Source: a virus | Lineage: Duplodnaviria > Heunggongvirae > Uroviricota > Caudoviricetes | Direction: 5' to 3' (one strand) | DNA: 6,030 bases | IMG/VR virus record: IMGVR_UViG_2681813273_000006 | Part shown: piece by piece, positions 3,023-6,030 of the stretch | Position numbering within the stretch: position 1 is the first letter of the stretch | Layout: every line of letters starts with the position of its first letter | Translations under genes and position numbers: made by a program | The notes under the pieces: generated by a model | The model's database searches: none | What the model saw: the letters and a program-made list of their open reading frames with translations, nothing else | What the model was told of the DNA's origin: nothing

Positions 3023-3393
3023 TGCGCCATGAGTTTATTTTACCTTATCCGCCGACGGTGAATACTTACTGGCGACGTCGTGGCAGCACATATTTTGTAT
3101 CAAAAGTTGGTGAGCGTTATCGCCGTGATGTGACGCTAATTGTTCGCCAGCAGCGGCTGAAATTAAACCTGTCCGGAAGGCTGGCGATAAAGATTATTGC
3201 AGAGCCACCGGATAAGCGCCGTCGTGACCTGGACAATATCCTGAAAGCACCACTGGATGCGCTGACGCATGCCGGACTACTCATAGACGACGAGCAGTTT
3301 GATGAAATCAATATTGTGCGCGGTCAGCTCGTTCCTGGTGGGCGACTGGGCGTGAAGATTTATGAAATCACAGGTGATAACGATGGCGCGTGA
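3022..3393 (+). CDS. rusA: RusA-family Holliday junction resolvase (endodeoxyribonuclease RusA)
   Basis: 123-aa ORF with RusA signatures, including the acidic motif RRRDLDN and the DDEQ / GGRL region; resembles E. coli prophage RusA. AGGAGG lies 10 nt upstream of the ATG. Confidence 0.85.
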
Positions 3394-3769
3394 TATTCAG
3401 CAGGTTATGGAACGGTGGGGGGCTTGGGCTGCAAACACTCATGAAGATGTATCCTGGGCGTCGATCGCTGCTGGTTTTAAAGGGTTAATTCCGTCGAAAG
3501 TGAAATCACGCCCTCAGTGTTCTGATGATGATGCAATGATAATTTGTGGCTGTATGGCCCGGTTGAACAAGAAAAATCAGGATTTGCACGATTTGCTGGT
3601 GGATTATTACGTAGGTGGAATGACTTTTATGAGTCTGGCACGGAAACATGGGTGTTCGGATACCTGTATTGGCAAGCGCCTGCAGAAAGCGGAAGGGGTT
3701 ATTGATGGCATGTTGATGATGCTTGATATCCGGCTGGAGATGGACAGATACGTAGAACGAATTATGTAG
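3383..3769 (+). CDS. Late-gene antiterminator Q (phage 82 / DLP12 quuD-like family)
   Basis: [28 protein letters not shown]...[16 protein letters not shown]...GKRLQKAEG strongly resembles my recollection of E. coli prophage Q (QuuD-type) proteins. ATG at 3383 has an AGGTGA Shine-Dalgarno 5 nt upstream and overlaps the rusA stop. A strong promoter follows at once. Confidence 0.8.
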
Positions 3770-3773
3770 GTGC

Positions 3774-3803
3774 TTGACCAGACACATTGTCCGGGGCTAT
3801 ATT
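3774..3803 (+). promoter_or_regulatory. Sigma70 late promoter (PR'-like) immediately downstream of Q
   Basis: TTGACC (3774-3779), 18-nt spacer, TATATT (3798-3803). The position directly after the Q stop matches lambdoid late-promoter/qut architecture. A 6-bp hairpin CGCCAG/CTGGCG sits at 3811-3828 in the initial transcribed region. Confidence 0.6.
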
Positions 3804-3864
3804 CCTCACGCGCCAGCAAAATCTGGCGTCGGGATTGGAACCCCGGATAGAGACCGCGACAGAC

Positions 3865-3889
3865 ACACGCCGCGAGCGTGTTTTTTATT
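3865..3889 (+). terminator. Intrinsic terminator (tR'-like), ending a roughly 77-nt leader RNA from the late promoter
   Basis: Stem ACACGC / GCGTGT with loop CGCGA, followed by TTTTTTATT. Confidence 0.6.
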
Positions 3890-4243
3890 GTCGTATGCAC
3901 GCGCACATCTGAATTATGGTGGGGCGCATGGGGGAGCTGAAAAGCTCGCCGGTCGGTTTCCCGGTAGTTCCAACCCTGTGCGTCTCACCACCCGATGATT
4001 GGAACCTGACGGTGTTGACAGTTTCAGGTTTGCAGTTTACATTTCCCCGCGGTGCTCAAAACACCTCGAAAGCGGTATCCACACCCGATAGCCATGTGGT
4101 TTTTTTGTGTCCAGAATTCTTGGTTTATGACCGGGTGTGCGGCTAATACAATACCAGCAATGGAAATACGCCCGCCGACTTTCGACGGTTTTGAGCGCCC
4201 GGTCACCCTCTCAAAAGGGGTAAATCAAAATATTCGAAAGGAC

Positions 4244-4813
4244 ATGTCTATGAATCGCACGTCTATTGAAAAACTCCCGTCACTTACGCATAACCATCTT
4301 CCTGTCATGACAACAGAGCTGCTGGCTGATTTGTACGGAACAGAGCGCCAGCGTTTGACAAACAATTTCAATCGAAACAAAGAACGGTTTATAGAAGGTA
4401 AACATTTTTTCCTGATAGAAGGTGATGCGTTACGAGAGTTGAAGAACGAAAACTCTTTAAGAGTTTCTGTGAAAATTGCCCGTAACGTTCGCTCCCTCAT
4501 CCTCTGGACAGAACGTGGCGCAGCCCGTCACGCCAAAATGCTCGAAACCGATCAGGCGTGGGAAGTGTTCGAAAAACTGGAAGACTGTTATTTCAACCAG
4601 AAACAGCCACCAGCGGCACAAAACACATCTATCGAAAATGATGGATGCGCATTACTGAGCCACTTCGATAAACACGGTCAGGTTGAGTTCACGGAAAAGG
4701 TACCCGCCGATGCGATGGTATGTACTCTGGAACGGTTTAAATTTTATCTGGAGCAACACGGGTGGATCGTTGCCCGTAAAGAGCAACTGGTGGAGCGGTT
4801 GATGCGGTTTTAA
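4244..4813 (+). CDS. ORF6N-domain (KilA-N-related) putative DNA-binding / antirepressor-like protein; start may be ATG 4250
   Basis: N-terminal region VMTTELLADLYGTERQRLTNNFNRNKERFIEGKHFFLIEGDALRELKN ... LWTERGAARHAKML fits the ORF6N domain pattern as I recall it. AAGGA Shine-Dalgarno lies 7 nt before ATG 4250. The ORF-track extension back to 4052 has no start codon and covers leader sequence. Confidence 0.65.
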   Translation: MSMNRTSIEKLPSLTHNHLPVMTTELLADLYGTERQRLTNNFNRNKERFIEGKHFFLIEGDALRELKNENSLRVSVKIARNVRSLILWTERGAARHAKMLETDQAWEVFEKLEDCYFNQKQPPAAQNTSIENDGCALLSHFDKHGQVEFTEKVPADAMVCTLERFKFYLEQHGWIVARKEQLVERLMRF

Positions 4814-4889
4814 AAATTTTTTCCGAAAACTTTACGATCGTAAAAAGTTGAATATCCTGTTAAGAGTGGTTACTACGCCACACAGCTTA

Positions 4890-4915
4890 AACCCGCCGAT
4901 GAGCGGGTTTTTTTA
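4890..4915 (+). terminator. Intrinsic terminator downstream of the ORF6N gene
   Basis: Stem ACCCGC / GCGGGT with loop CGATGA, followed by TTTTTTTAT. Confidence 0.65.
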
Positions 4916-4964
4916 TACCTGAAAAACGGCACAGGACGTTAAACGTGCTGGTGGTCAGATGAGT

Positions 4965-4993
4965 TTGCAGATGTGATGACATATGGTTATTAT
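4965..4993 (+). promoter_or_regulatory. Sigma70-like promoter directly upstream of the tRNA cluster
   Basis: TTGCAG (4965-4970), 17-nt spacer, TATTAT (4988-4993). The first tRNA starts 10 nt downstream. Confidence 0.45.
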
Positions 4994-5002
4994 TCTGCCT
5001 CC

Positions 5003-5079
5003 GGCCCTTTAGCTCAGTTGGTCAGAGCGAGCGACTCATAATCGCCAGGTCGCTGGTTCAAGTCCAGCAAGGGCCACCA
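5003..5079 (+). tRNA. tRNA-Ile2 (anticodon CAT, lysidine type, ileX/ileZ-like); tRNA-Met not formally excluded
   Basis: Manual cloverleaf: acceptor GGCCCTT/AAGGGCC, D-arm GCTC..GAGC, anticodon loop CTCATAA, T-arm GCTGG TTCAAGT CCAGC, discriminator A plus CCA. Closely resembles E. coli ileX. Confidence 0.8.
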
Positions 5080-5080
5080 A

Positions 5081-5157
5081 CCACCACTAGCTCATCCGGA
5101 TAGAGCATCAACCTTCTAAGTTGACGGTGCGAGGTTCGAGTCCTCGGTGGTGGGCCA
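5081..5157 (+). tRNA. tRNA-Arg (anticodon TCT, reads AGA)
   Basis: Manual fold: acceptor CCACCAC/GTGGTGG, anticodon stem TCAAC/GTTGA with loop CTTCTAA, T-arm CGAGG TTCGAGT CCTCG, discriminator G plus CCA. Confidence 0.8.
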
Positions 5158-5159
5158 GC

Positions 5160-5235
<76 letters not shown>

Positions 5236-5238
5236 TAT

Positions 5239-5313
<75 letters not shown>

Positions 5314-5926
5314 GCGAGATTTGAGACGAAGGTTGTTATTTGCACTGACACAATATTGTGTGGGAATGTCTGACTCCTTACCATCTCCTGTTCTGTGATG
5401 TTGTTTTGTTGCAGTTCCAGTGCTCTTTTTTCAGCACCAGAATGGTGCATTGTCGGTCAGGTTACGTAGTGAACCTCTGGCAGGGGACTGATGATTCATC
5501 ATTCTGGTGTTGTAAATATCTCTTCGGACAACTTACAAAATATTCTAAGCAAACCCCGGGAACACACTCTTAACTGCCTTGGCTGGCGGTTTTTTGTACA
5601 GCGCTCGGTATGTGTGAGCTGGAAATCAGATTTTGCATGGACTGGAATCATGCTGTTATTTAGGGGCGAAGAACTGGCTTTTTCTTCCGCCTTCTCACCA
5701 GTAACGATTAGAAAAATAATGAAATGCCCCCCTCCGGGGAGGAGGACCGTAGAAAAAAGGACCCGCCAGCAAAAACATTGGGGATGAACAGCTTTCGCTA
5801 CTCAGATTGCTGGCGGGTAAAGTTCCTCATGAATTAAGAATGCTACGCGATCTTTTTTAATGGAAATGAAAATTATTGTCAATTAGTCGTGCGTGTTTTT
5901 TCATACAATATTGGTAAAGGTGATTC

Positions 5927-5960
5927 AGGCCATCAGAGTTTTGCTGATGGCCTTTTTTCT
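5927..5960 (+). terminator. Strong intrinsic terminator
   Basis: 10-bp perfect stem AGGCCATCAG / CTGATGGCCT with 7-nt loop AGTTTTG, followed by TTTTTT. The reverse strand lacks a T-run, so it is + strand specific. Confidence 0.75.
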
Positions 5961-6030
5961 TTCCGATAGCACAGGTCTGTCGGGGGGGTGCCCCTATTAA
6001 GTTGTCAAGCATGTTATGACCCCTGCGGGG

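Follow-up and report, generated by a model that had tools for sequence, protein, structure and literature searches.

In lambdoid prophages, the stretch of DNA that separates Q from the lysis genes hosts Shiga toxin and other morons, and it is known to be dense in regulatory small RNAs (sRNAs) that rewire host gene expression. The locus considered here is one such stretch, the interval at positions 5314-5960 of a 6,030-nucleotide (nt) piece of tailed-phage DNA (IMG/VR virus record IMGVR_UViG_2681813273_000006, referred to at its full length as the window), and it contains two non-coding cassettes, termed module A and module B. Downstream of PR', the lambdoid prophages of enterohaemorrhagic Escherichia coli (EHEC) Sakai encode pairs of convergent sRNAs that bind Hfq, the ends of which are conserved and the bodies variable (Tree et al. 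2014, PMC4104026); these comprise AsxR/EcOnc02 with EcOnc27 and AgvB, and the anti-sRNAs are 51-60 nt long with a conserved 42-nt 3' region. In enteropathogenic E. coli (EPEC) E2348/69, the sRNAs PasA and PasC have been verified by Northern blotting and are Hfq-dependent (PMC8550237). PasA is encoded between a SASA esterase gene and the class II holin gene of PP2, and PasC is found in PP5, where insertion sequence (IS) elements separate it from the holin gene; relative to that gene, both sRNAs are encoded on the opposite strand. The genes pasA, pasC and pasD1 have been described as directly adjacent to the holin/lysozyme operon (Zhu et al. 2026, bioRxiv 10.64898/2026.05.13.724894), with PasA and PasC membership in that study defined by blastn similarity to the E2348/69 genes.

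The window shares several features with the EHEC pairs. The interval occupies the same slot between Q/PR', with its morons, and the lysis genes; it includes two convergent units, known here from sequence, each with an intrinsic terminator (5572-5598 on the plus strand and 5818-5752 on the minus strand); and these units are cassette-like, with conserved ends and variable bodies. It differs in that neither the window nor 5314-5994 matches the AgvB and AsxR Rfam models (RF02702 and RF02703), in the predicted lengths of its RNAs (about 95 nt on the minus strand and 115-285 nt on the plus strand, versus 51-60 nt), and in the fusion of its plus-strand partner to a tRNA array. sRNAs in this prophage slot are already known, and the minus-strand unit appears to be a new body variant in a known slot. 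Module A has the features expected of a conserved structured RNA without a curated family, and is unusual in being tied to phage tRNA genes. Taken as a whole, the interval is probably the non-coding filling of the late-operon moron slot in a decayed lambdoid prophage, with two exchangeable cassettes arranged as a convergent RNA pair.

Two non-coding cassettes in the Q-to-holin slot

The interval is a Q-to-holin moron slot, because in the complete genomes with identical sequence the class II holin gene comes next after it, followed by the remaining lysis cassette; the synteny supports an original prediction, made from the letters of the window, that this is the position where Stx phages carry toxin genes. 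That prediction also took the interval to be co-directional with the tRNA genes, perhaps as a long 3' trailer or as one or more small RNAs. A single long co-directional unit is not supported: the 5' and 3' parts are non-coding cassettes that have been inherited independently of each other and form a mosaic, as their different distributions show. The full interval at 99% identity or more is found in only nine of 5426 complete E. coli genomes, where it bears no annotation. Module A (the 5' part, approximately 5330-5598) is present at about 70% identity in 233 of the 5426 genomes, or about 4%, and module B (5613-5988) is present at 85-87% identity in 1451 genomes, directly 5' of class II holin genes or as a plasmid relic. 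When close relatives of this module B variant are included, about a quarter of complete E. coli genomes are represented.

The joint between the cassettes falls at approximately 5599-5612, and in the 87% relatives of module B the sRNA STnc100 (RF02076, 112-114 bits) occupies the position that module A has in the window. All eight of the BLAST-derived module A copies that were read (loci L003-L009) start just after a tRNA-Gly gene, and the DNA downstream of them varies, including two-holin plus M15 peptidase cassettes, TerB/DUF3927 morons and class II holin cassettes. Among species-representative genomes, plausible module A copies are found in E. coli and Shigella flexneri only, and a scan of such genomes outside Escherichia and Shigella returned chance matches only. 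The phage genome collection contains no near match and two distant partial matches. A literature search found no description of a tRNA-Thr/tRNA-Gly-linked prophage RNA. Searches for known prophage sRNAs with Rfam and blastn matched no family, and Rfam 15, applied to the whole window and, at E <= 10, to the interval alone, gave only generic matches of the microRNA-precursor hairpin type and weak terminator-driven matches to the interval.

The interval is also non-coding, as had been proposed. Open reading frames (ORFs) do exist at 5358-5573 and 5491-5787, sizes of 71, 98 and 37 amino acids occur, and RefSeq annotates hypothetical proteins at homologous places in some records, all of which would be expected if one of the ORFs encoded a real small protein. 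This explanation is disfavoured and extremely unlikely, as frame, start and length are not conserved among homologues, no Shine-Dalgarno sequence is present, and the interval ORFs have no family match in Pfam or PHROG. No ORF is shared among 26 module A representatives, and these homologous prophages show no conserved protein-coding gene at this place. The variable columns have no three-base periodicity (38/59, 36/52 and 33/57), and most insertions and deletions are not multiples of three. For the 63-amino-acid hypothetical protein that RefSeq annotates in L002 and in some genomes, the window, L133 and L134 have ATT in place of the ATG start codon, with a frameshift in addition in the window; automatic annotation evidently puts spurious hypothetical proteins on these sequences.

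Structure of module A and its linkage to tRNA-Gly

Module A extends over 5314-5599 on the plus strand, as a structured non-coding cassette that follows the tRNA-Gly gene and has no match in Rfam 15. Copies were collected by an exact-pattern scan with its most conserved 20-mer, which detected at least 120 IMG/VR loci. The 20-mer lies 181-195 nt after the end of the tRNA-Gly gene in 109 of 132 pattern instances, and a terminator follows it at +83-94 nt in a short form, to which the window belongs, or at +172-178 nt in a long form. All of the repeats, the terminator and the ORFs listed in the original prediction are present in the window at the positions given there, and the density of structure that it remarked upon is beyond chance, with six terminator-like sites in 4800-6030 versus 1.3 ± 0.9 in shuffled sequences. 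A covariation-based comparison across homologous prophages supports RNA structure on the plus strand for the 5' half of the interval.

The first structured element is a four-way junction (5342-5423, plus strand), in which helix P1 (5342-5347/5418-5423) closes around P2 (5348-5361), P3 (approximately 5362-5389) and P4 (approximately 5390-5417). The P1 closing helix, GCACUG/CAGUGC, surrounds three hairpins in the minimum free energy fold of nearly every copy, and P2 is the 14-bp palindrome noted previously (ACACAAT/ATTGTGT, 5348-5361). When P1 is enforced, three branches form in 36 of 38 distinct homologues versus 12% of shuffled interiors, with a mean z-score of -2.95. Helices P2, P3 and P4 persist although the hairpins that form them take 13, 24 and 19 different sequences, respectively, with compensatory change in P2 (for example, CACA/UGUG versus GCGUA/UACGU), and homologues at just 58-70% identity retain the four-way junction with different hairpin sequences. 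A junction covariance model built from the long-form subfamily alone (R2) matches window positions 5339-5433 on the plus strand over model positions 1-107, with the modest score of 17.9 bits (E = 0.0037 over 65 kb), and also finds every short-form copy at the expected place. A previously noted GTGCT/AGCAC repeat (5421-5425 and 5433-5437) has both of its halves present, and their pairing with each other is not kept in homologues; GTGCT is part of the conserved P1 helix, and AGCAC is part of the long hairpin described below. The P4 region (columns 68-95 of alignment A3) has two alternative pairings, and in L008 and L066 a G-to-A change is matched by C-to-U at both partners, so that both pairings covary.

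The cloverleaf-like topology of this junction, in which a helix of 6-8 bp closes off three hairpins, and its position directly after the tRNA array raise the question of whether it is a decayed tRNA gene, a former fifth member of the array. Neither ARAGORN at default settings nor the Rfam tRNA model matches it as a tRNA or transfer-messenger RNA, and relaxed or intron-allowed ARAGORN runs give only scattered and inconsistent results. The helices are joined by 0, 0, 1 and 1 nt, which does not resemble a tRNA, T-loop and D-loop motifs are lacking, and a pseudogene would not be expected to retain three helices via compensatory change. A decayed tRNA is accordingly a disfavoured and very unlikely source of the junction.

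A tract of six or seven U residues (5426-5431, plus strand) directly follows P1 in all copies, where it may act as a first terminator or mark a 3' end. A long G·U-rich hairpin (5428-5516, plus strand) of approximately 27 + 6 bp (about 33 bp in total), with a conserved 3' internal loop, UGGCAGG, has its foot in the last bases of this tract. The TGATGA-T-TCATCA repeat at 5489-5501, which had been listed as a separate element, lies within this far longer inverted repeat, whose 31-nt arms are at 5428-5458 and 5486-5516. In a 25-sequence alignment of the hairpin, 97.8% of cells are standard pairs versus 31-52% when the partners are slid, and the covariation score is reached by none of 500 shuffles. 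One-sided changes are nearly all from G·U to A-U or G-C. The fold of 5424-5520 has an energy of -40.4 kcal/mol on the plus strand (z = -5.75) versus -23.2 kcal/mol on the minus strand, and this asymmetry and the many conserved G·U pairs point to plus-strand RNA as the bearer of the modelled structure. A hairpin covariance model built without the window (R1) matches 5422-5519 on the plus strand with 60.8 bits (E = 1.5e-13), and scores 34 bits on the minus strand.

The idea of a promoter inside module A that would serve the long hairpin was dropped, as the hairpin alignment shows no conserved -10 element and a -10-like TACAAT is found in few copies only. An integron attC-like reading of the hairpin was also discarded, since an integrase is lacking and the abundance of G·U pairs favours RNA over DNA. 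In L028 (6563-6710), a clean deletion between two UGCAU motifs of the long hairpin has removed its upper half.

The hairpin is followed by an A/U-rich variable linker (5517-5571, plus strand), which in the window is of the short form, and by the intrinsic terminator that ends module A (5572-5598, with the hairpin at 5572-5591; plus strand, z = -3.3). This terminator is found in most copies; the regular expression used detected it in at least 88 of 132 instances, which is an undercount, as the CTGCC variant of the window was missed. In the long form, the approximately 100 extra nt of the linker (L008 at approximately 2612-2750, L009, L003 at 1493-1640, and others) appear to form a second multibranch domain, the closing stem of which covaries (GAGGUGU/ACACCUC versus GAGGCGU/ACGCCUC). 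In the two-holin cassettes of L004 (4321-4297) and L008 (2831-2808), a minus-strand terminator-like hairpin occurs directly after the module A terminator, and a convergent layout thus recurs there with unrelated sequence. The LT-IIb toxin prophage fragment of phage SerU-LTIIb (L003) has two units of tRNA-Gly and module A (1276-1660 and 3182-3562), each 5' of a holin gene; its toxin genes sit after the endolysin gene and not in the slot between tRNA and holin.

Upstream of module A are four tRNA genes (5003-5313, plus strand; detected with ARAGORN and Rfam), which are a CAT tRNA (Ile in the RefSeq annotation), Arg-TCT, Thr-TGT and Gly-TCC. The predicted sigma70-like promoter of the array, TTTGCA-18-TATTAT (4964-4993, plus strand, from its sequence pattern), lies outside the interval and would define the transcription unit. 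Its counterpart in L004, TTGCAA-17-TATTAT (3634-3662), is also directly 5' of the tRNA genes. Because the promoter is approximately 10 nt 5' of the first tRNA in two different upstream contexts, those of the window and L004, the tRNA array and module A are suggested to be an autonomous transcription unit.

For module A and for module B (vide infra), we infer the transcripts, RNA ends, processing steps and functions that follow from sequence. Module A would form the structured 3' portion of the unit transcribed with the prophage tRNAs. The tRNA promoter would drive it in the lysogen, and the Q-modified late promoter would do so once the prophage is induced. Module A would be freed from tRNA-Gly by normal tRNA 3' processing, and would end either at the U tract, giving a species of approximately 115 nt, or at the 5572-5598 terminator, giving one of approximately 285 nt. 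The long hairpin is probably a processing or stability element, and the two module A terminators would keep transcription from the tRNA promoter out of the lysis genes.

Some precedent exists for RNAs in such a position. The 3' external transcribed spacer (3'ETS) of leuZ in glyW-cysT-leuZ is an RNA between the last tRNA and an intrinsic terminator, freed by tRNA processing. Module A is similarly placed between the last tRNA and a terminator, and its alignment has no conserved -10 element, though TACAAT occurs in some copies; however, it is far longer and highly structured, and has two successive terminators, of which the first, the U tract, is putative. The tRNA cluster of phage T4 also produces stable RNAs C and D (species 1 and 2), which are structured, are of unknown function and are co-transcribed with tRNA genes. 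The likeness lies in a structured phage RNA beside tRNA genes, whereas T4 is a virulent phage with another gene context, and no sequence relationship is expected.

It is possible, though doubtful, that module A is mainly a cis-acting processing and attenuation element, a role that would not exclude the one proposed above. The U tract would then attenuate transcription, and the hairpin of approximately 30 bp would be an RNase III site that splits the tRNA precursor from the lysis mRNA and sets the stability of the latter. In E. coli, the metY-nusA-infB operon has a similar order of tRNA, terminator and RNase III site. A long imperfect hairpin of at least two helical turns that favours the plus strand, that sits exactly at the boundary between tRNA and mRNA in every context, and that has no conserved internal promoter in the alignment is consistent with a cis-acting role. 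On the other hand, the arms and the internal loop are conserved in sequence beyond the needs of pairing, a further terminator follows, so that there would be no downstream mRNA to process in the lysogen, and RNase III cleavage is not predictable from sequence.

A more specific role for module A is decidedly unlikely, namely that it represents an undescribed class of structured phage RNA that has co-evolved with prophage tRNA genes and acts on tRNA biology, rather than being an ordinary base-pairing sRNA or a passive trailer. If it were true, module A might act on enzymes that process or cleave tRNAs, as a mimic or a decoy, or it might regulate phage tRNA maturation in lysogeny versus induction. 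Module A is in any case a defined target for asking what phage tRNA operons make besides tRNAs.

Module B and its minus-strand unit

Module B (5613-5994, both strands) is a cassette upstream of class II holin genes. It was aligned in five variants, from the window, L002, L135, the plasmid locus L133 and L134, of which four are distinct, L135 being nearly identical to L002. The best-conserved segment is 5752-5818, with 91% invariant columns among the four distinct variants versus 58-76% in the neighboring non-coding sequence and 38% in the holin leader. This segment consists of a 12-bp stem, its 34-nt loop, and the A run that precedes the stem on the plus strand. The stem had been listed in the original prediction as part of a region co-directional with the tRNAs; it is indeed perfect (5761-5772/5807-5818), but a U run follows it on the minus strand only. 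When it is read on the minus strand, the hairpin is followed by CCUUUUUU, and on the plus strand there is no U run after the stem.

The conserved RNA-like unit at this position thus reads as an opposite-strand gene, a candidate antisense sRNA of approximately 95 nt (5752-5848, minus strand), with a terminator stem at 5818-5807/5772-5761 and a U run at 5758-5753. Its putative promoter (5854-5882, minus strand) is TTGACA (5882-5877)-17-TAAAAA (5859-5854), approximately 95 nt upstream of the terminator. Both hexamers are invariant in the five variants, and the spacer varies at several positions. Co-directionality with the tRNA genes is supported for the 5' half of the interval, where it agrees with the tRNA-Gly spacing, the covarying helices, the plus-strand energetics and the lack of a conserved internal promoter, and is not supported for the 3' half. 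A GNRA tetraloop was tried as a strand marker for the antisense unit and dropped, as the loop is AAAA in L002.

The 12-bp stem could instead act on the plus strand, as a structural or stabilising element of the late transcript, with no antisense gene. The stem folds on either strand (-28.3 kcal/mol on plus versus -31.6 kcal/mol on minus), and its only change, in L133, stays a G·U pair on the plus strand. This alternative is disfavoured and clearly unlikely, given the absence of a U run on the plus strand and the invariant U6 on the minus strand, the invariant TTGACA-17-TAAAAA at the right distance on the minus strand, and a layout that is the same as that of PasA, PasC and Esr41-like units, among which PasA and PasC are Northern-verified on the minus strand relative to the holin gene (PMC8550237).

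When the minus-strand units of the window, L002, PP4, L077, PasA and PasC are lined up, all begin with TTGACAA, and they end 114-133 nt after it in a terminator on GCCAGC/GCUGGC and a U run. In the window-type units, the promoter aligns nucleotide by nucleotide with the promoter of the E2348/69 PP4/L077 unit, which is itself a weak Esr41 match (32 bits). Like PasA, PasC and the EHEC sRNA Esr41, the window unit is directly upstream of a class II holin gene (in the identical-sequence genomes), on the opposite strand, and with a predicted 3' stem-loop and poly-U; it also has the CGAAAG loop motif found in PasA. The RNA bodies, however, are unrelated, and the terminator loop of the window is 34 nt long with an inner hairpin. 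A blastn comparison (word size 7) of the window with the PasA, PasC and PasD loci (L130, L131 and L132) gave chance-level matches only (E >= 0.49), and neither the window, searched at E <= 1, nor positions 5314-5994, searched at E <= 10, gave a match to the Esr41 model (RF02676, gathering score 102 bits). An antisense sRNA gene of approximately 95 nt, with a promoter at 5882-5854 and a terminator at 5818-5752, would on this comparison occupy the Esr41/PasA/PasC slot, and its product would probably act in trans with Hfq.

STnc100/PasD (RF02076) is comparable to the plus-strand partner, as an sRNA of approximately 200 nt on the plus strand with its own terminator, and it is directly upstream of module B in L002 and L135. 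The model (gathering score 47 bits) has no match in the window and scores 94-130 bits in L002, L135, L007 and L077. STnc100/PasD differs from module A in that it has no tie to tRNA genes and apparently has a promoter of its own, seen by eye as TTGACT-17-TATTAA in L130/L132. STnc100 and module A occur together in L007.

Nearest to the holin gene is a strong intrinsic terminator (5927-5959, plus strand, z = -4.0), present as had been described with a hairpin at 5927-5953 and a T run, and approximately 35 nt before the holin ATG. Of the 12 class II holin upstream families listed, 11 also have a hairpin and T run of the terminator type just 5' of the holin start. In the proposed arrangement, this terminator would be the last insulator before the holin gene, passed only by antiterminated (Q-modified) polymerase after induction. 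A plus-strand promoter feeding it was considered and dropped, because L002 does not retain the TACAAT at 5904-5909, and 22 nt separate this hexamer from TTGTCA. The less conserved part of module B (5613-5751) includes a plus-strand hairpin at 5635-5653 and a second minus-strand hairpin at 5747-5726, which was dropped as a candidate because the relatives do not retain it.

A module B relic of approximately 344 nt is located beside iss on ColV-type plasmids, and 643 plasmid places were detected in all. On plasmid pTB201 (L133, 2501-2844), the relic is between an IS3-family element and Rz/Rz1 remnants near iss, and the holin gene is deleted. The module B variant, including its copies beside the serum-resistance gene iss, supports the view of the slot as one in which sRNA cassettes are exchanged while promoter and terminator are shared.

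Weight of the evidence and genomic context

Several observations weigh against the interpretation of the interval as a pair of functional RNA cassettes. In module A, the covariation counts come from few related lineages, so that the events are not independent of one another, P1 and large parts of the long hairpin are invariant, and the folding z-score of the whole module (5314-5600, plus strand) is weak at -1.7. The 20-mer used to collect the copies is within the long hairpin and inflates its apparent conservation, yet the BLAST-derived copies of L003-L009 have the same pattern. A branched hairpin is also unusual as an intrinsic terminator. In module B, the -10 element of the antisense unit, TAAAAA, lacks the canonical T at position 6, and the stem of this unit has no compensatory change, with the sole change (L133) giving G·U on the plus strand and A·C on the minus strand. 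The window prophage has also been decayed by IS2, ISEc20 and other IS insertions, and the elements may no longer be used here.

Some of these points would fit an interval that is spacer DNA with terminators, conserved through recent descent and hitch-hiking with the tRNA and holin genes and producing no functional RNA. The confinement of both modules to Escherichia and Shigella, the few module B variants at 85-87% identity, the persistence of the plasmid relic beside iss after loss of the holin gene, and the weak whole-module z-score are all compatible with such an origin. It is nevertheless unlikely, as it does not explain why homologues at 58-70% identity retain the junction through different hairpin sequences, why the one-sided changes in the long hairpin almost all preserve pairing, or why the module B hairpin is much better conserved than its flanks. 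The convergent RNA pair remains the interpretation preferred here.

The window itself is pieced together from lambdoid prophage DNA of an IS-rich genome of the E. coli or Shigella type. Its gene order is a DnaB-like helicase gene, repeated NinB/RusA segments, a Q-like gene, a block of Rfam RNAs, an Ant-like ORF and the four tRNA genes. The Rfam RNAs are in a row at 3797-4212, and are c4-a1b1 (50 bits), isrK (77.5 bits), C4 antisense RNA (71 bits) and sRNA-Xcc1 (77.4 bits). Downstream of these four is an Ant/AnrP-like ORF (approximately 4250-4813), and 3797-4813, between the Q-like gene and the tRNA genes, was read as an antirepressor control module like immI of phage P1 or isrK-anrP of Gifsy-1.

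At the other end of the window, the holin leader (5960-5988, plus strand) is cut at 5989 by the end of the IS110-family element ISEc20, which makes up the last 42 bases (5989-6030). The insertion is 6 nt upstream of the position of the holin ATG in L001 and L126; by comparison with L001, this ATG would be at 5995. In the window genome, the lysis cassette is severed from its leader by ISEc20. The window also resembles a draft-assembly collage, with N runs at 1648-1658 and 2439, and a segment of approximately 300 nt, consisting of the 3' end of the helicase gene and the next small gene, is present three times (1419-1718, 1720-2019 and 2644-2943). Positions 1-47 and 1659-1720 resemble what we take to be the ends of IS2, and in L001 an IS2 element is annotated within the same replication gene.

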